A stretch of DNA of 32,000 bases from Candidatus Heimdallarchaeota archaeon (GCA_030668875.1 DAOVER010000001.1:1-32000), one strand, 5' to 3'. Numbered from the stretch's first letter, positions 10,882-22,478 are shown. Notes: generated by a model from the letters alone, not told the origin. Numbers and translations: made by a program.

Positions 10882-12198
10882 ATGTCCACTAATTCAGTTG
10901 CAATTGTGTTTGATATTCGCAAAAAGAACTTCTACAGTTTAACTTCTCTTATTGCGACTATTGATGGGGATACAAATTTAAAAGCCCTTGATCAAATAAT
11001 TACTGGAGACTTATCTAGTAATGATATTAAATCTCTCTTGAAGAAATATACTAAATTAATAATAGCTTACTCTTTTCGAACAAGTCAGTTAGAAGAAATC
11101 TATACAAAAATGAAAACATTCTATTCCTCACTTTCAACAGATGAAATACATAGGGTGACTTTCATCGCTGGAGGAAGTCATCCCACAGGTGACCCACTTA
11201 CAACATTGAAATTTGGCTTTGACTTCTCTTTTATAGGTGAAGCAGAATATTCCCTCCCCTTCTTCTTGAAAAGTTTTTTAGAGAAAGAGGACATTTATGA
11301 AACACCTGGTATCACTTTCTTGGAAAATGAAATTTCTTTATCTTCTACATCTAGACCGCTTCCTATAAATTTAGATGATTACCCCTTTCTATCAAAAAAG
11401 CGAAAACTATATCCCCCGCTCGAAATCACAAGAGGTTGTGGTTTTGCTTGCGCTTTTTGTCAAGTTCCAATGCTGTTCAAACATAGAATCCGTCATAGAT
11501 CTCCTGAGATAATTATAGAACTGGTAAAATGGATGGTAACAGAAAAATTGAATGACATTCGTTTTATCACACCAAATTCTTTTGGTTACATGTCAAAAAG
11601 TGCAAGATCAGTAAACCAAGAAGGTATAATGCATCTGTTAGAAGGTATACGGTCTATTAAGGGAATAAGAAACATTTTTTATGGAACATTTCCTGGAGAA
11701 GTAAGACCTGAAACTGTTTCTGAAGAGCTTTTAACAAAGATTAAACCTCTTATTACAAACAGACGAATTTCAATTGGTCTCCAATCAGGTAGTAATAAGG
11801 TATTAAGGGAAATTAGAAGAGGACACACGGTTGAAGAAGCTGTTTCTGCCATAGATATTTTACTTGCATCAGGATTTACACCAATAGTAGATATAATTGT
11901 AGGATTACCGGGGGCAACAGAAGATGATGAAGAACAAACAATTCAGGTCATTGAGGATTTAGTTCAAAAACAAGCAATAATTCGAGCTCATGTTTTCATG
12001 CCATTGCCTGGAACAGCGTTGGAAGATTCTATTTATCAACCGATTTTTCCAGAAATCAGAAAGAAACTAGGAAGACTAAGTACAATCGGTAAGATTGAAG
12101 GAAATTGGAATCAACAAGAATTATACGCAAAAAGAGCTTGGGAAATGATACAAGACATGCAATCAGTTTCTCCGTTGTCTAGAGAAGATAATCACTGA
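10882..12198 (+). CDS. B12-binding-domain radical SAM protein (MJ1487-like family)
   Basis: IAGGSHPTGDP...GFDFSFIGEAE (B12-binding-like), EITRGCGFACAFCQVP (CxxxCxxC), RHRS, DIRFITPN, GLQSGS...RGH. ATG at 10882 lies 2 nt after the kae1 stop. Confidence 0.88.
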   Translation: MSTNSVAIVFDIRKKNFYSLTSLIATIDGDTNLKALDQIITGDLSSNDIKSLLKKYTKLIIAYSFRTSQLEEIYTKMKTFYSSLSTDEIHRVTFIAGGSHPTGDPLTTLKFGFDFSFIGEAEYSLPFFLKSFLEKEDIYETPGITFLENEISLSSTSRPLPINLDDYPFLSKKRKLYPPLEITRGCGFACAFCQVPMLFKHRIRHRSPEIIIELVKWMVTEKLNDIRFITPNSFGYMSKSARSVNQEGIMHLLEGIRSIKGIRNIFYGTFPGEVRPETVSEELLTKIKPLITNRRISIGLQSGSNKVLREIRRGHTVEEAVSAIDILLASGFTPIVDIIVGLPGATEDDEEQTIQVIEDLVQKQAIIRAHVFMPLPGTALEDSIYQPIFPEIRKKLGRLSTIGKIEGNWNQQELYAKRAWEMIQDMQSVSPLSREDNH

Positions 12199-12868
12199 AA
12201 AGCTGTTCTTCATTTAGATGCCTACCTCTTGCTTCAACTTTTACAGCTCTTTTGAAAATGGTCTTGAAATTATTCACTGTCTCTTTGTATCCTTCTTGAA
12301 AAGCTAAGAAAAGCTCTCTACTATATTCGGTGTGAGTGCTTATGAAACACTTCTTAATTAGCAATATGTCTACTGCTTTATCTTCTATCGCGCTTGAAAA
12401 CTTACCAAGTCCGAAATCAATGAATACTAATTTAGTATCAAGTTCTAGAATGTTGCTAGTTGTTAAATCACCATGAATAATGTCATTATTATGCAATTTT
12501 CCTACTTGTTTACCTATTTCTTTTACAACATTCAGTTTTTTCTGTAATTCTACTTCGCTATCTAAAATATCTTTGACTAATATCCCATCAATATCCTCCA
12601 TAATTATGGTTGTGTTAACTATATCAATCTCAAATACATAAGGTGTAAGCACCCCACTTTTTTTTGCGGATATTAACAATTTTGATTCTGTTACAGTTCT
12701 ACTTTTTCTCAATTCTACATCGAGGGGAGCTATTCGATATTTCTTTGGAATTCTGACTTTTTTCATTGCTTTATAATCTAACCATTCACTTTTACTAAGA
12801 ATTGCCTCTGCTCCCCATTTATCTATGCTAAGATTATCTTTAGAACTATTCTCAGTATGTTCAGCCAT
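12179..12868 (-). CDS. bud32: KEOPS complex kinase/ATPase Bud32 (standalone, not fused to Kae1)
   Basis: GAEAIL, KVRIPKKYR..LD..LRKSRT..E, IIHGDLTTSNI, FIDFGLG, EDKAVD, VEARGR. Confidence 0.95.
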   Translation of the reverse strand: MAEHTENSSKDNLSIDKWGAEAILSKSEWLDYKAMKKVRIPKKYRIAPLDVELRKSRTVTESKLLISAKKSGVLTPYVFEIDIVNTTIIMEDIDGILVKDILDSEVELQKKLNVVKEIGKQVGKLHNNDIIHGDLTTSNILELDTKLVFIDFGLGKFSSAIEDKAVDILLIKKCFISTHTEYSRELFLAFQEGYKETVNNFKTIFKRAVKVEARGRHLNEEQLFSDYLL

Positions 12869-13979: not shown

Positions 13980-14936
13980 TTAGAAACCCATGGTATCGAG
14001 AATGTGCTTGATAATCTTGAATTTATATGCAACATTCATTACATCATTCACATTTGTAGTCATACCTACTAAGATTTTACCTTCTGAACAACCTTCAACT
14101 ATGATTTGTACAACTCCTGCATTAAGGAATTTAATCTCTTCTTTTGACTGTATCATTTCATATATAACACTGGGATATTTGGTTAAAGTCTCTAGAACAT
14201 AGATGATTTTCTTTTCCTCAAGATTTCCTGCGTAAAGTTGCCCCATTGTTCCTTGCTCTTTTGGAAAAATATAAGCTGAAGCTGAAGGTGAATCACAGCT
14301 TCTTATGGAGGAAAATAACAGTGATGTAATTGCTCTTTTATTTGCTTCAGCTAAGATTTCTTGTGTCATTTCAGCTACAGGTATCATGGGGACAGTTTCA
14401 TATGGCTTTATTTTTTCAAATGTTTCAACTCTCGTTTCAGAAGCATTCGTAACAGGATATCTTACTTTTGGAACAAGTACAATTTTCGGTCTTTCAATTC
14501 CAAATCTATCAAAAATGCCTTCTATTTTATTACGTATAGAAGAGAAACCTTCTGCCATTATACTTTTACAAGTGAGTTCTAACAGATCTGTTGGGTCTTC
14601 TGCATTAAGAGAGTCAAGAAGAGTATTCCCTAGCACTTCAATATAATTTCCAATTAGAGGACGAAGTTCTATCGAAAAATTTTCTACACGAGAAACAAAT
14701 AAAATAGTTAAATCAATGAAAGTAACATACGTTGCTCTGAATCTTCCTCTAAAAATTGTAATTTCACTATATCTTCTAACCCACTGATAAAACTCTATTG
14801 GATGAATAAAGTATCTATTTACCTCAATTCTTTCTATTTCACTCTTTATTTTATCAATAGTGAAAATGTTAGCTCCTTTTGTATCATATATTATAATCGC
14901 TACCAAGGGGCTAATGTCAATCTCTGGAAATAGCAT
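13980..14936 (-). CDS. Hypothetical protein: N-terminal longin-like + C-terminal roadblock/LC7-like domain (paralog A)
   Basis: ATG at 14936 is preferred (ORF track extends to 15011). N-terminal VAIIIYDTKG..; C-terminal domain ...SASAYIF...LETLTKYPSVI...EIKFLNAGVVQIIVEG...ILVGMT aligns with the ORFs at 15078 and 16326. Confidence 0.65.
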   Translation of the reverse strand: MLFPEIDISPLVAIIIYDTKGANIFTIDKIKSEIERIEVNRYFIHPIEFYQWVRRYSEITIFRGRFRATYVTFIDLTILFVSRVENFSIELRPLIGNYIEVLGNTLLDSLNAEDPTDLLELTCKSIMAEGFSSIRNKIEGIFDRFGIERPKIVLVPKVRYPVTNASETRVETFEKIKPYETVPMIPVAEMTQEILAEANKRAITSLLFSSIRSCDSPSASAYIFPKEQGTMGQLYAGNLEEKKIIYVLETLTKYPSVIYEMIQSKEEIKFLNAGVVQIIVEGCSEGKILVGMTTNVNDVMNVAYKFKIIKHILDTMGF

Positions 14937-15077
14937 AAGACCTCTGTCTAAAATTATGCAATTCTTTGCTAATAAGCTTATTGGACAACTTTTGTATGTG
15001 AATAATTGCATAATTAGTCAACGGAACCAAAGAAATATTTTTAGATTTTAGTATTATAATGAATATGAGGTTATGTA

Positions 15078-15659
15078 ATGAGTAAGAATTCTAGTAATTC
15101 AAAACCACCATCAACAAAGATATCTTCCAGAAAGAGAAAAACTGTAAAGAAAGATATATTTGTAGAAATGGAAGAAATTGCTTACGAGGCTTTAAATATC
15201 TCAAAACGCAAACTAAAGAGTGGACAATATCTTAAAGATTTTCTAAATCAAACTTCATCAAAAGATTCTGTTCTCGAAGCAATTAAAGTTACTATCGATG
15301 CTCTATTAGATAGCATAGCTTCTGATTTGGACTCACTTTCAGCAGCGGCTTTAGTTCCACACCCTGAGAGTGAAGAACCAAAAGCAATTGTTAGAGGACC
15401 TTTAAATCGAGAGATTGTAAAACAAATTTTAACTATATTTAGAAAATACCCTCCTGTTATTAATGACCTTCTTGGGTCTGATGACGAATTAAAAGTTCTT
15501 GATACTGGAATTGGTTATGTAGTCTTAGAAAATTGTCAGAAGGATAATTATTTGGTTGGGATAGTTAAAAAACAAAAAGATGTTGATGAATTATCTAGAA
15601 AACTAAGACATGTACAGCAAGTAGTTGTTGACAATACTTTACTTCTTGATGGATTGTAG
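15078..15659 (+). CDS. Hypothetical protein: basic N-terminal extension + roadblock/LC7-like domain (paralog B)
   Basis: IDALLDSIASDLDSLSAAALV (roadblock-like helix1-strand1), ILTIFRKYPPVI, ELKVLDTGIGYVVLE, YLVGIVK, terminal helix. Confidence 0.7.
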   Translation: MSKNSSNSKPPSTKISSRKRKTVKKDIFVEMEEIAYEALNISKRKLKSGQYLKDFLNQTSSKDSVLEAIKVTIDALLDSIASDLDSLSAAALVPHPESEEPKAIVRGPLNREIVKQILTIFRKYPPVINDLLGSDDELKVLDTGIGYVVLENCQKDNYLVGIVKKQKDVDELSRKLRHVQQVVVDNTLLLDGL

Positions 15660-15664
15660 AATGT

Positions 15665-16318
15665 TTAACGTCTATCAGTCAAACTTTTATTGCAATTCTC
15701 ACAATAATCCTGTTCTAGATGTACTTCCTTGAAACAGTTCCAACATCTCTTTAAAGATGTTTCTTGTTTTGAATAATCATGAATTATCTTCTCAATTTCA
15801 TTAGCAATTTCAAGCATTGCTTTGTACCTATTAGACTTCGCATATGAGAATAATTTAGTTAATGGATTGTGAAATATCACAGCTAGAACAGCTAATACAA
15901 CAGAAGAAATTCCAACTAGTAGTAATGCTTGAGCATTTTGCCAATATACTGTGATTAAGACAATTAATACACTTAACAACGCAATTAAAATGGTTACCGA
16001 AGCCATTCTAACTCCAAACAGTCGCTTGTTTAATAATGAGTTGAAGAATTGTTTAACACTTGAATTTTTTGAAATAAAATCAAGTTTAAGGAAATTTCCT
16101 TCCACAGAATCTTGAATCCTTACTACAACTTTCTGTAGTTGTATTTTTGTAATGAATAATAGTGTCTTATTTTCTTGTAATCTAATATCTGGATATTTAT
16201 ATTTCAACTGTTTAATAATATGCATGAAAAGATTTGATGTATTCTTAATGTCTGTACTGATATCTTTTGAAAATGTTATGTGTTCGTGTTGTACTGCGAA
16301 AACGATTGTACTCACCAT
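15665..16318 (-). CDS. Two-TM membrane protein with C-terminal zinc ribbon
   Basis: TM pair VTILIALLSVLIVLITVYW and ALLLVGISSVVLAVLAVIF; C-terminal CWNC-x10-CENC. Starts 7 nt downstream of the 16326-17393 stop. Confidence 0.75.
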   Translation of the reverse strand: MVSTIVFAVQHEHITFSKDISTDIKNTSNLFMHIIKQLKYKYPDIRLQENKTLLFITKIQLQKVVVRIQDSVEGNFLKLDFISKNSSVKQFFNSLLNKRLFGVRMASVTILIALLSVLIVLITVYWQNAQALLLVGISSVVLAVLAVIFHNPLTKLFSYAKSNRYKAMLEIANEIEKIIHDYSKQETSLKRCWNCFKEVHLEQDYCENCNKSLTDRR

Positions 16319-18804: not shown

Positions 18805-19851
18805 ATGATGAGTGATTCCCTTAAACCATTGTTAATTCGATTAGTGGATTCCTTTTCCTATTATTTGATAAATGAAGCAAGGATTAGCACTGGTGAAGAG
18901 GTTATGCAATCAAAAATCAATGATATTGCATATAGAAAAGCAAGTGGGAGATTTGGAGAAGTATATGTCATTGACGTGTTTTACAGTTCTGAACATGGGA
19001 ACCATAAAAGCAAATTAGCTATTAAATTCATTGACAATATTGAAGATATAATCACGGAAATAAAAAACACCGCATTTCTTGAAAAGCATTTTTCAACTCG
19101 ATCTATAGTTAAGATTCCTCGTTATATTTATGTAAATTTGAAAAAACCTACTTATATTGCATACGAAGGAATGACTGGAATCAACTATGAAGATGCTCAT
19201 TTAGTTTCTGATAAAAGCTTCTGGGCAGGATATATACTATCAATCATACATGCAGGTAAGCCAAAACCGGTGATTACTGATATCTATGAAGAATTATACA
19301 GAAGATTAATATTATCTGTGTTTGGTGGATCCGAAGAAGAACATAGTATAATGGAAAAATCCAAAATCTTGATCGAAATGATTAAAGCTTCGCAAGGAGG
19401 TAGTGATTCCTTTGGTGACTATCATCAAAGCAATCTTATGGTTCGAGTAGCTCCAGAGGGTGAGGTTGTAAGTATTGCATTAATAGATCCAACTTTCTGG
19501 ATGCAAGGATCATTTGATAGATTTGAAGACATAGGAACATTTTTTGGAAGACAATCATTTCTTGAGTATCGTGTAACAAAATTGCTCACATCAACGATAA
19601 ACGACATACAGCAATTTATTCAAGGTTATAATGTTCACTTGAAAGAAGTAAATGGTGCTTCCTTGGAGGAAATGTATCCAAAAGGGTATCCTATCGATTT
19701 TTTTCTAGCAACATGGGCGATGATGGATGTCTTAGATAAAACAAATAGTTTCAATATAGATGCAAATCATCCAGACATTATCCTGTTAAGAGCATTAGCC
19801 CATTATCTGTTAACAGAACAACCAATAGGAAAAGAAGTGAACAATTTTTAA
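18805..19851 (+). CDS. Protein-kinase-like fold phosphotransferase (APH/atypical kinase family)
   Basis: Gly loop ASGRFGEVY, LAIKF (VAIK-like Lys), helix-C Glu in ITEIKN, hinge IAYEGMTG, catalytic FGDYHQSN, Mg-binding LIDP. Confidence 0.8.
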   Translation: MMSDSLKPLLIRLVDSFSYYLINEARISTGEEVMQSKINDIAYRKASGRFGEVYVIDVFYSSEHGNHKSKLAIKFIDNIEDIITEIKNTAFLEKHFSTRSIVKIPRYIYVNLKKPTYIAYEGMTGINYEDAHLVSDKSFWAGYILSIIHAGKPKPVITDIYEELYRRLILSVFGGSEEEHSIMEKSKILIEMIKASQGGSDSFGDYHQSNLMVRVAPEGEVVSIALIDPTFWMQGSFDRFEDIGTFFGRQSFLEYRVTKLLTSTINDIQQFIQGYNVHLKEVNGASLEEMYPKGYPIDFFLATWAMMDVLDKTNSFNIDANHPDIILLRALAHYLLTEQPIGKEVNNF

Positions 19852-19902
19852 TCCAATTAAGGGGAAAAAATTTATAGAACTAATACAATGTAATTTAGTA
19901 TA

Positions 19903-20745
19903 ATGATTGATTATAATTCAGAAATAATGATATCAGCGTATGTCATTGCTAAGATTTTAGAGGTAGATGCTTTAGATACTTCGAAAGAATCTGCTGGGGT
20001 TCTCTTGGGTTATGTCGATGAAGCAACACAGAAGCTAATCATAACTGATTTTGATACTGGAAAACAAAGACAAACATCGACATTTGTTGTTCTAGATGAT
20101 GAAGCTCTTGTTCAGATTGTTACAGATTTGCAGAATAGAGATAGAAAAGAATCAATTGTTGGATGGGCACATACGCATCCTTCCTATGGTTGTTTCCTTT
20201 CTGGTACAGACAAGGGAACACAAAGAATCTATCAAAATCTCTTCTCCAAAGCAGTAGCTTTAGTGATTGATCCTTCAAAATATTATCAGTCTCAAGAGAG
20301 TTCTGATTTAGAAATTCAGTTTTTTAGATTAATAGATGATATTGATTACAAAGCAATACCTTACCAGCTATTTTTTGATGAACATACCAAACACGTTTCC
20401 AACTTAGCCAAGGTTGACCTCAAATGGGAATTACCTAAATTGACACAAGAAGTTGTTCAACTTTTGCATAAAAAATTTGAAACGATTGTCACTCCATCCT
20501 TAATTGATCAAGATAAGAAATTACTTCATGGACTTGTTGATATACTAAGCGAATCTCACGAAACACTATCGGAAGCTGGGGAAGAAAAAGAAATTCTTGT
20601 GACTATCGATAAAAAACTACACTCAATAAATCAGAATGTTAACAGAATTTACAATGAGGAGACAAATAATATTTATTCGGTAATGAATGTCGTAGCTGTA
20701 ATTATATTGGCCATATCTTGGTTTTTGATTGCTTATTTTGTGTAA
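19903..20745 (+). CDS. MPN+/JAMM metalloisopeptidase (Rpn11/CSN5/AMSH-like) with C-terminal TM tail anchor
   Basis: ESAGVLLG plus IVGWAHTHPSYGCFLSGTD (H-x-H-x7-S-x2-D at 20170-20211) and AVALVIDP. C-terminus VMNVVAVIILAISWFLIAYFV. Confidence 0.88.
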   Translation: MIDYNSEIMISAYVIAKILEVDALDTSKESAGVLLGYVDEATQKLIITDFDTGKQRQTSTFVVLDDEALVQIVTDLQNRDRKESIVGWAHTHPSYGCFLSGTDKGTQRIYQNLFSKAVALVIDPSKYYQSQESSDLEIQFFRLIDDIDYKAIPYQLFFDEHTKHVSNLAKVDLKWELPKLTQEVVQLLHKKFETIVTPSLIDQDKKLLHGLVDILSESHETLSEAGEEKEILVTIDKKLHSINQNVNRIYNEETNNIYSVMNVVAVIILAISWFLIAYFV

Positions 20746-20818: not shown

Positions 20819-21634
20819 ATGCCTAATATTGAGATTATAGCAATCCCGTCTCACAAAATAATTGAGGAAAATGATGTTTTATTTGATATTTTATTGGAAT
20901 CAATGCAATCAAAATCAATCGTTTTTCAAGAAAATGATGTCTTAATTATTGCTAGTAAAGTTGTTTCTGTAACTGAGGGAAGAGTGGTGAGTTTTGCTAC
21001 AGTTTCTCCATCTCCGCTTGCAAAAAAACTTGCTGAACAAATGCAAACTGCAACTGAGTTCACCCAAATTATACTTGATGAATGTGAAAATAATTACATC
21101 GGCGTTGTTCCAGGAGCTTTAACTACCATTAATAAATATGGGATATTGGCAAATGCTGGTGCAGATCAATCAAATGTTAAAAACAACAAAGCCATAATTC
21201 TTCCTGTTAATTGCAAGAAATCAGCTTATGATCTTCACTCAAGGATATTTGAGACAACTCAAAAAAGGGTTGGCGTAATAATTGCTGACTCTAGAACAAT
21301 GCCAATGAGATTGGGAACAGTTGGGACCGCTTTAGCAACGTATGGATTCAAATCAGTAATCGATGAAAGAGGAAAGAGTGATCTGTTTGAAAGACCTATG
21401 CATATTACCTCTAGGGCAATTGCAGACCAACTTGCTACAGCAGCTGAAATAGTAATGGGTGAAACAGATGAAAGGACCCCATTCGTAATTATTCGAAATT
21501 ATCCTCTGATTCCAATATCTGAGGATGATGAAATTGATATAAATGACCTAATCCTTGCAGATTTATGCATGTACATCGGACCACTCATGCCGTGCATTAA
21601 AGAGAAAATTGAAGGAGAAAAGCAGAATGATTAA
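20819..21634 (+). CDS. cofE: CofE-family gamma-glutamyl ligase (F420-0:L-glutamate ligase-like; possibly FolC2-type folate glutamylase)
   Basis: IASKVVSVTEGR, ANAGADQSN, GVIIADSRTMPMRLGTVG, DERGKSDLF, IADQLATAAEIVMGE...PFVIIR. Confidence 0.85.
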   Translation: MPNIEIIAIPSHKIIEENDVLFDILLESMQSKSIVFQENDVLIIASKVVSVTEGRVVSFATVSPSPLAKKLAEQMQTATEFTQIILDECENNYIGVVPGALTTINKYGILANAGADQSNVKNNKAIILPVNCKKSAYDLHSRIFETTQKRVGVIIADSRTMPMRLGTVGTALATYGFKSVIDERGKSDLFERPMHITSRAIADQLATAAEIVMGETDERTPFVIIRNYPLIPISEDDEIDINDLILADLCMYIGPLMPCIKEKIEGEKQND

Positions 21635-22478
21635 TGGTTTTCTCGGTAATCTCCAAATTGGTGATGACTATCCAGCTAGAATAATAGGAATTGTAAATCT
21701 ATCAAAAGCTTCGTTTTTTAGAGGTTCAGTGGCTTCTTCTCAAAGAGAATTGCAAACATCGATAGAGAAAATGGTTAAAGATGGAGCGAATGGAATTGAT
21801 ATAGGTGCTCAATCTACACGACCAATACAAATCTATGGGGGCGAGGGTCGACTCAATGAGGACCAAGAGCTGAAAATTATAAGGGAAGCCGTTGAAGCAT
21901 CTCTAGATGTATTGAGTAGTTACGATGAAATAGTGCTATCTGTTGATACAATGAGAAAATCTGTAGCAGAATATTCTCTTAAAGAAGGTGTTAGAGTAAT
22001 AAACGATATTTCAGGTTTTAAGAAGGAGAAAGAAATAGCTAAATGCATAGCTGAATTTGATGCTAGTGTTGTTTTGATGGCAGCAAAATCTGAACCTGGT
22101 GATGTATATGAGATCAATGACATATTGCACGAACTACAGAAGAGTCTCTCCATTGGTGAAGAAGCTGGAATTGAAAAGCAAAACATGTCAGTGGACCCTG
22201 GAATTGGAAGCTGGGAAGCTAGAGATTTTAAACATGATTATTCAATAATTAAAAATCTTAAAGAATTTAGAAAATTAGAATCACCTATTTATGTTGGTAT
22301 AAGTAGAAAAACATCTATAGGGAAAATTCTTGAGAATGCTCCGCCAGAAGAACGATTATTCGGATCATTAGGAGCTACTATTATAGCTATTGTAAATGGA
22401 GCTCATGTCATTAGAACTCATGATGTCAGACCAACACTTGAAGCTATTAAAGTTGCTGAGACAATCTTAAATTATTAA
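21627..22478 (+). CDS. folP: Dihydropteroate synthase
   Basis: IIGIVNLSKASF, IDIGAQSTRP, SVDT, INDISG, VDPGIG, GISRK, IRTHDV. ATG at 21627 has SD gaaggag and overlaps the cofE-like stop by 8 nt. Confidence 0.92.
   Translation: MINGFLGNLQIGDDYPARIIGIVNLSKASFFRGSVASSQRELQTSIEKMVKDGANGIDIGAQSTRPIQIYGGEGRLNEDQELKIIREAVEASLDVLSSYDEIVLSVDTMRKSVAEYSLKEGVRVINDISGFKKEKEIAKCIAEFDASVVLMAAKSEPGDVYEINDILHELQKSLSIGEEAGIEKQNMSVDPGIGSWEARDFKHDYSIIKNLKEFRKLESPIYVGISRKTSIGKILENAPPEERLFGSLGATIIAIVNGAHVIRTHDVRPTLEAIKVAETILNY

Follow-up and report, generated by a model that had tools for sequence, protein, structure and literature searches.

In this study, we analyzed a 32,000-nucleotide stretch of DNA from Candidatus Heimdallarchaeota archaeon (GCA_030668875.1, DAOVER010000001.1:1-32000; the window), and focused on a gene at positions 19,903 to 20,745 that encodes a 280-residue protein with a JAMM (MPN+) metalloprotease domain and a hydrophobic helix at its C-terminal end. 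The protein is probably a membrane-tethered zinc isopeptidase of the Rpn11/CsRpn11 type (CsRpn11 being the enzyme of Candidatus Caldiarchaeum subterraneum), which would both process ubiquitin precursors and act as a deubiquitinase (DUB). It belongs to the JAMM/MPN+ superfamily and to the archaeal Rpn11-like group of CsRpn11 and Asgard proteins (Fuchs et al., 2018), and the anchored form, by which we mean an MPN domain followed by a predicted tail anchor, is a conserved core JAMM of many Asgard lineages.

Domain organization and conservation

The gene and its parts are as follows (positions in the window):

19903..20745, + strand: gene for the predicted tail-anchored, Rpn11-like JAMM/MPN+ metalloprotease of 280 residues (open reading frame translation; stop codon at 20743-20745)
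19903..20373, + strand: MPN+ catalytic domain, residues 1-157, including the Ins-1 segment at about residues 50-65 (AlphaFold2 model, Foldseek and alignment with CsRpn11)
19987..19989, + strand: codon of the catalytic Glu29 in the ESAG motif (invariant in close and distant alignments)
20170..20211, + strand: JAMM zinc-binding motif H90-T-H92-P-x6-S100-x2-D103 (invariant; aligned with CsRpn11 and yeast Rpn11)
20380..20670, + strand: helical linker, residues 160-256, of variable length in the wider family (AlphaFold2 helices, predicted local distance difference test score (pLDDT) 48-75)
20671..20742, + strand: C-terminal hydrophobic helix, a predicted tail anchor, residues 257-280, at the end of the protein (hydropathy and conservation)

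First, the open reading frame (ORF) had 50 full-length homologues of 277-294 residues (49-93% identity) in metagenome-assembled genomes (MAGs) named Heimdallarchaeaceae or Heimdallarchaeota; as these came from independent assemblies, the ORF is not due to chance. The Pfam JAB family (PF01398) matched residues 6-113 with an expectation value (E) of 4.6e-12 (46.2 bits; curated cut-off 22.5), and the Prok-JAB model matched weakly. Second, we compared two alignments, one of 23 close homologues and one of 31 distant ones (22-51% identity), and found that E29, H90, H92, S100 and D103 were invariant in both (23/23 and 31/31, respectively). The Ins-1 segment aligned without gaps to that of CsRpn11, and T52, G53, Q55, Q57, T58 and V62 within it were invariant in the family. 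The JAMM domain is apparently active.

The AlphaFold2 (AF2) model, which was built on the 23 homologues, had a mean pLDDT of 73. It showed the MPN fold over residues 8-157 (pLDDT mostly 70-88), and helices beyond the domain at 160-168, 182-194 and 202-217 together with one long helix at 227-279. Two claims of the initial annotation of this gene were therefore upheld: the intact JAMM motif, whose quoted sequences lie at residues 86-124 and whose catalytic set is invariant in homologues, and the succession of a helical region and a hydrophobic helix at the extreme C-terminus, which was recovered as the AF2 helices and as a terminal segment of high hydropathy (2.47). A Pfam scan of residues 145-280, also run on two homologues and with E values up to 10, gave only scattered hits (E >= 0.0085), all below the cut-offs; on these grounds, we rejected the presence of a SNARE-like domain, or of any other named one, in this half of the protein. 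The anchored JAMMs of other lineages were 219-245 residues long, implying a shorter linker there.

The terminal helix as a predicted membrane anchor

The best 19-residue Kyte-Doolittle (KD) window of the protein was 262-280, with a mean of 2.47. The final 24 residues carried no charge and had a low helical hydrophobic moment (0.51); the uncharged hydrophobic run at the C-terminus comprised 22-24 residues, with 0-3 residues beyond the helix. Residues 257-280 formed the sole hydrophobic segment, no window elsewhere exceeding a KD value of 1.6, and no signal peptide was seen in the protein, the MPN fold starting right at the N-terminus with its first strand and helix. By hydropathy, it has the makeup of the tail-anchored class: one C-terminal segment, a large N-terminal domain and no other transmembrane (TM) segment. 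The terminal segment was hydrophobic in every homologue (23 close and 30 distant) despite residue turnover, and Y258, N262 and W273 were fixed in the close alignment. We infer both membrane insertion and topology from these features. Since there is no signal peptide and a single C-terminal TM helix, insertion would most likely be post-translational, as in tail-anchored proteins. The genome from which the window derives (G000) encodes a full-length ArsA/Get3 homologue (G000:C34:18035-18970; E 2.5e-83); such a homologue was also present in all control genomes, so that it only permits an insertion route of the Get3/ArsA type.

Alternatively, the terminal helix might stay out of the membrane and pack in a helical bundle with partners, as is the case for the C-terminal helices of Rpn11 and CSN5 within the proteasome lid and the signalosome, where established structures show them to serve complex assembly; the low AF2 confidence of the linker would fit such a role. 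We consider this very improbable, because a run of 22-24 consecutive uncharged residues with a KD value of 2.4-2.5 and a low amphipathic moment, always at the extreme C-terminus and hydrophobic even in lineages with 22-30% overall identity, argues against a packing helix. In addition, Pfam found no match to RPN11_C or CSN5_C, both of which were found in eukaryotic controls, and with only two JAMM-domain genes detected in the genome there is no obvious Rpn8-like partner.

Relationship to Rpn11, CSN5 and other JAMM proteins

A sequence search of solved chains placed CsRpn11 first (E 3.8e-23), followed by eukaryotic Rpn11 (1e-15), CSN5 (2e-12), AMSH/Sst2 (7e-8) and BRCC36 (0.005), and returned no structure of the JAMM type that acts on small archaeal modifier proteins (SAMP; desampylase) at E <= 0.01. 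Likewise, the NCBIfam desampylase model scored 18 bits against a cut-off of 130. A Foldseek search with the AF2 model gave Rpn11, CsRpn11 and CSN5 as top hits (probability 1.00), in the same order as the sequence search, with template modeling scores (TM-scores) by target of 0.77-0.85 on MPN-only structures and identities of 30-35%. The agreement of the two rankings and the lack of a SAMP-type match bear out the initial placement of the protein near Rpn11 and CSN5 rather than near short prokaryotic JAB proteins.

CsRpn11 (PDB 6FJU, 6FJV, 6FNN and 6FNO) was the best sequence match (34-35% identity), with a TM-score of 0.8-0.85 on the MPN domain. The two proteins share the catalytic motif, Ins-1 and the helices after the MPN core (residues 9-145 aligned with short gaps only), and their alignment shows no insertion of the size of Ins-2. 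However, CsRpn11 is a soluble protein of 202 residues whose gene adjoins a ubiquitin-E2-E1-RING operon, whereas in the window JAMM a stalk of about 100 residues leads to a predicted terminal TM helix, and its gene shows no linkage to ubiquitin genes. Caldiarchaeum and Asgard JAMMs have been published as closest to Rpn11 (PMC6043591), and CsRpn11 is a proven ubiquitin-precursor protease and DUB (PMC6043591, PMC5654768). The papers characterizing CsRpn11 do not contain the word 'transmembrane', and 'membrane' is never said of the enzyme (PMC6043591, PMC5654768).

Eukaryotic Rpn11/PSMD14 and CSN5 have the MPN+ fold and the motif context in common with the window JAMM but are soluble subunits of large complexes. 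Judged by the missing RPN11_C and CSN5_C matches, and by the lack of an MPN- partner or a PCI-lid context (both JAMM-domain genes of the genome have intact motifs), the window JAMM is not a lid-type Rpn11 or CSN5 proper. AMSH, AMSH-LP and Sst2 share the JAMM core, as well as the proposed handling of ubiquitinated cargo at a membrane; their similarity to the window JAMM was much weaker (E 7e-8 to 1e-4, over residues 28-127 only), and the N-terminal MIT domain of the AMSH family was not found in the window JAMM, whose Pfam hits were JAB and Prok-JAB only. AMSH depends on protein partners for its recruitment and does not use a TM helix. Two eukaryotic DUBs, USP19 and USP30, have a single TM helix and a cytosolic catalytic domain, and USP19 is tail-anchored in the endoplasmic reticulum; as cysteine proteases with an unrelated fold, they resemble the window JAMM by functional analogy only. 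To our knowledge, the USP class is the only one with tail- or TM-anchored DUBs, and none of the solved or eukaryotic JAMMs that we compared combines an MPN domain with a terminal TM helix.

Distribution and phylogeny of the anchored form

When 1.8 billion representatives were searched exhaustively with HMMER, 101 proteins matched with E <= 1e-10. The best of these included dozens of JAMMs of 200-300 residues with one hydrophobic segment at the extreme C-terminus (KD 2.0-3.1), and comparable segments were present at 26 genome loci. The anchored form occurred in contigs labelled Heimdall, Kari, Jord, Frey, Baldr, Hel, Hermod and Odin, as well as in a few MAGs with generic or odd labels. Thus, the survey for the MPN+TM design that had been proposed initially revealed its recurrence across many Asgard lineages. 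Two contigs with Asgard-type anchored JAMMs (L028 and L019) are filed as 'Candidatus Deferrimicrobium' (a bacterium) and 'Bathyarchaeia', respectively; the tree places their JAMMs beside sequences from Hel and Heimdall, suggesting that the contigs were mis-binned or mislabelled.

In the class of the window (Heimdallarchaeia; 82 genomes in seven families), full-length anchored matches were found in five families. All of the approximately 20 Aigarchaeota/Nitrososphaerota orthologues examined were soluble (163-245 residues). A universal presence of the anchored JAMM in Asgard archaea was rejected, since only soluble forms were seen in a 69-genome Asgard family (three complete genomes inspected) and at the loci inspected in two Heimdall families. 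The 69-genome family (L122-L137; G205, G245 and G122) has 5-6 JAMM paralogues of 315-529 residues, some in tandem and none with a tail anchor, whose long C-terminal extensions are probably coiled coils.

With regard to phylogeny, a quick and a careful tree of the MPN domain both left the archaeal backbone as a polytomy, with anchored forms in several groups; in the approximately unbiased test, a single origin of the anchored forms was not rejected (p 0.37). Eukaryotic Rpn11 and CSN5 formed one well-supported clade that joined archaeal Rpn11-like sequences. The expected connection to Rpn11 and CSN5 was therefore seen, whereas the trees singled out no sister group for the eukaryotic clade.

A different architecture was observed in Thermoplasmata, Bathyarchaeia and unnamed archaeal contigs, namely JAMMs of 427-527 residues with a TM segment in mid-protein and a large C-terminal part. 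Four such genes (L066:5992-7275, L081:5965-7293, L069:620-2203 and L084:5992-7503) directly adjoin ubiquitin and E1 genes, and an E2 gene as well in L066. These proteins represent a second, independent route to membrane placement.

Evidence for ubiquitin as the proposed substrate

The genome of the window has only two JAMM-domain (JAB/Prok-JAB) genes and holds two sets of ubiquitin, activating enzyme (E1) and conjugating enzyme (E2) genes, both outside the window. One set is an operon (G000:C80:2037-7858) containing an E2, the second JAMM gene, a 370-residue RING ligase (E3), a further TM protein, a ubiquitin-like protein and an E1, the last two about 3 kb downstream of the JAMM and RING genes. 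The second JAMM (G000:C80:2618-3379), encoded between the E2 and the RING E3, is a soluble protein of 253 residues with an intact JAMM motif and no TM segment. It begins with an acidic extension of about 100 residues, and its long branch in the tree reflects strong divergence. Six TM segments are predicted for the RING E3, which also has a linker rich in Ser, Arg and Thr, and the ubiquitin-like protein ends in TAGC. The other set forms part of a cluster of ubiquitin genes and genes of the endosomal sorting complex required for transport (ESCRT; G000:C91:41535-48331), with two ESCRT-III-like genes, Vps4, a Vps25-like gene, a 467-residue UEV/E2-like protein, E1 and a ubiquitin that ends in GG-Y; no protease gene was found in this cluster.

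We infer that ubiquitin is the substrate of the window JAMM because this genome has only two JAMM genes, Rpn11-like JAMMs co-occur with E2 across Asgard genomes, some genomes have the anchored form as their sole JAMM, and CsRpn11 performs both reactions. In the same 300 Asgard genomes, an Rpn11-like JAMM was present in 208 and an E2 fold in 207, although these counts include all Rpn11-like JAMMs, not the anchored form alone, and related genomes are not independent. The correspondence was also seen family by family (JAMM versus E2: 1/77 versus 0/77; 0/5 versus 0/5; 69/69 versus 68/69). In two Odin genomes, both Pfam models detected one JAMM, the tail-anchored form; their ubiquitin/E1/E2/RING cluster lies about 825 kb from it, and their ubiquitin carries 10 residues after the Gly-Gly, which have to be trimmed off. 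A 19-genome family likewise had a single JAMM hit, of 229-242 residues, and the coordinate-matched contigs (L034 = G086 = G139) carry the anchored form. Finally, in G006 and G007, closed genomes from the same family as the window, a single JAMM hit spanned the full model, and three E2 hits were retained.

The initial annotation had proposed a membrane-inserted DUB with an AMSH-like role. Its first half is supported by the Rpn11-like sequence, the conserved tail anchor, the co-occurrence with E2 and the sole JAMM of Odin; the AMSH-like half fared worse. In its strict form, it would describe a dedicated ESCRT enzyme that strips ubiquitin from membrane cargo just before sorting or scission by ESCRT-III/Vps4 and does little else. 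The protease-free ESCRT-ubiquitin cluster of the same genome would leave room for such an enzyme, the predicted location at the membrane is where ESCRT acts, and a Borrarchaeum contig has a short soluble JAMM inside an ESCRT cluster (also bioRxiv 10.1101/2023.07.25.550441). However, neither an MIT nor another ESCRT-binding domain was detected by Pfam, the AMSH match (E 7e-8) was far weaker than those to CsRpn11 or Rpn11, and the JAMM gene was unlinked to the ESCRT cluster here and in 26/26 anchored loci. Moreover, the sole JAMM of Odin must mature the ubiquitin precursor as well. Thus, we think a dedicated AMSH-like function unlikely. Since a sole JAMM must also process precursors, the role would resemble that of a membrane-tethered CsRpn11 and not that of a dedicated endosomal DUB.

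Gene neighborhood and the APH-type kinase

Two further features lie just upstream of the JAMM gene:

18805..19851, + strand: conserved upstream neighbor, a 348-residue APH/ABC1-type kinase-fold protein, ending 51 nt before the JAMM gene
19871..19876, + strand: TATA-like hexamer TTTATA after an A-run, 27 nt 5' of the ATG (read from the sequence)

The JAMM ORF has only three open codons 5' of its ATG, and it is possible that the hexamer is the gene's own promoter and that the mRNA is leaderless or has a short leader.

The kinase-fold assignment rests on invariant residues and language-model neighbors. K74 in an AIK-like motif, E85 in helix C, D205-x4-N210 in the catalytic loop and the metal-binding D228 (I-D-P) were invariant, and the language-model neighbors of the protein were APH-family clusters (0.97-0.99). 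Pfam hits to APH and ABC1 were weak (3/8 kinase members each); the window kinase itself had no Pfam hit, and its profile matched none of the solved structures. With respect to location, the kinase gene immediately adjoined the JAMM gene in 26/26 assessable genomes of the window's family (Heimdallarchaeaceae) and lay within 2.5 kb of it in 11/12 genomes of a second, sister family. It was unlinked to the JAMM gene in two small families, and absent from a fifth Heimdall family (0/12) and from other classes. The pairing is thus real but local to two families. The kinase would probably modulate or cooperate with the JAMM enzyme; a complex prediction for JAMM residues 1-256 and the kinase (score 0.00) spoke neither for nor against this. 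Kinase paralogues also occurred without an anchored JAMM. In many related genomes, the relatives of one paralogue (G000:C88:2346-3392) contained exactly one in-frame stop codon (TAA, TAG or TGA), as in G018:C39:655-1707, G021:C28:6265-7311 and G013:C122:126356-127393, and the copy in the window's own genome was open.

The conserved pairing raises the question of whether the anchored JAMM and the kinase form a membrane module unrelated to ubiquitin, acting on another ubiquitin-like protein, a peptide or a phosphorylated membrane component, while the operonic JAMM serves ubiquitin. The adjacency in both families (26/26 and 11/12) would suit such a module, and so would the separate JAMM within the E2/RING/ubiquitin/E1 operon of the same genome and the observation that the anchored gene was never inside a ubiquitin operon at the 26 loci. 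On the other hand, the kinase link is limited to two families; elsewhere, anchored JAMMs lack the kinase, and there are kinase paralogues without an anchored JAMM. The closed genomes of the same family have the anchored JAMM only and yet three E2 hits, and the Ins-1 segment, which binds the ubiquitin tail, is conserved. Therefore, a module apart from ubiquitin also appears unlikely, about as much so as the ESCRT-dedicated enzyme.

Other neighborhoods of the JAMM gene were as follows. Downstream in the window are CofE-like, dihydropteroate synthase and GHMP-kinase genes. With its listed TTG start, the dihydropteroate synthase ORF (21555-22478, + strand) overlaps by 80 nt with the CofE-like gene; the true start is therefore likely to lie more to the 3' side. 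Two conserved genes on the same strand, encoding about 405 and 256 residues, precede the anchored JAMM in contigs labelled Odin, Jord, Frey, Baldr and Hermod (L061:3969-5985, L072:2665-4679, L020:3880-5877 and six further loci). Neither protein had a Pfam, PDB profile or atlas match or a homologue in the window's genome, and the AF2 model of the 256-residue protein (pLDDT 35) was unusable. In L034 (6771-7463, - strand), and at the same position in L033, L041 and L048, the anchored JAMM is followed after 83-91 bp by a gene with a Roadblock/LC7 domain. Upstream of the kinase, the window encodes a 229-residue RIO/Bud32-like kinase (12179-12868, - strand) and a 217-residue protein with a C-terminal zinc ribbon (15665-16318, - strand); Pfam found nothing in the small unannotated genes at 13980-15011 and 15078-15659.

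Discussion

Taken as a membrane-tethered enzyme of the CsRpn11 type, the window JAMM would be synthesized in the cytoplasm and then inserted by its terminal helix, possibly via the encoded ArsA/Get3 homologue. A flexible helical stalk of about 100 residues would hold its MPN+ domain at the cytoplasmic (inner) face of the membrane, where the enzyme would most likely trim ubiquitin precursors to expose the Gly-Gly end and remove ubiquitin from conjugates, as soluble CsRpn11 does in Caldiarchaeum; the difference from CsRpn11 would be that activity is confined to the membrane surface. Membrane proteins are plausible substrates, whether labelled by the multi-pass RING E3 or handled through ESCRT, and the kinase may regulate the JAMM or share a substrate with it.

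Several observations, in addition to the limits of the co-occurrence counts given above, weigh against this reading. First, ubiquitin, E2 and E1 genes lie directly beside the soluble JAMM in every well-flanked Aigarchaeota locus, but no ubiquitin, E1 or E2 gene was found within 6 kb of the anchored JAMM gene, either in the window or at any of the 26 anchored loci, so that the link to ubiquitin is one of co-occurrence and not of operon structure. Second, the other JAMM of the same genome could do all the ubiquitin work, and a pure DUB model leaves the conserved kinase neighbor unexplained. Third, the TM assignment comes from hydropathy and the AF2 helix only. Finally, two Heimdall families had soluble JAMMs only, of about 190 and 300 residues, in the loci inspected, and in the 69-genome Asgard family, which does have E2, the three complete genomes inspected showed no JAMMs other than soluble ones with coiled-coil extensions; membrane tethering is therefore dispensable.

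On a broader view, the anchored form could be the ancestral Asgard ubiquitin protease and the direct forerunner of eukaryotic Rpn11 and CSN5. Ubiquitin processing and removal would then have begun at the membrane surface, in a control of membrane proteins resembling that by ESCRT or endoplasmic reticulum-associated degradation, and the enzyme would have become soluble and part of a complex only on the eukaryotic stem, where the TM helix was exchanged for the helices of the lid bundle. We regard this scenario as improbable, about as much so as the two alternative functions discussed above.

The published picture of the archaeal Rpn11-like enzyme is that of a small soluble protein encoded beside the ubiquitin operon. 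We found no description of an anchored JAMM in the papers open to our search, and no mention of one in the CsRpn11 papers, the Asgard ubiquitin-ESCRT paper or the UEV-Vps23 preprint. In many Asgard lineages, however, a conserved and sometimes sole JAMM carries a predicted membrane anchor and is encoded away from the operon. This provides a testable handle on the purpose of archaeal ubiquitylation: production of the soluble domain of this small protein should be easy, and cognate ubiquitin precursors have been identified in the same genomes. If our interpretation is true, the membrane would be the place where ubiquitin is matured and removed in these archaea, and membrane proteins would probably be the main class of substrates as well.

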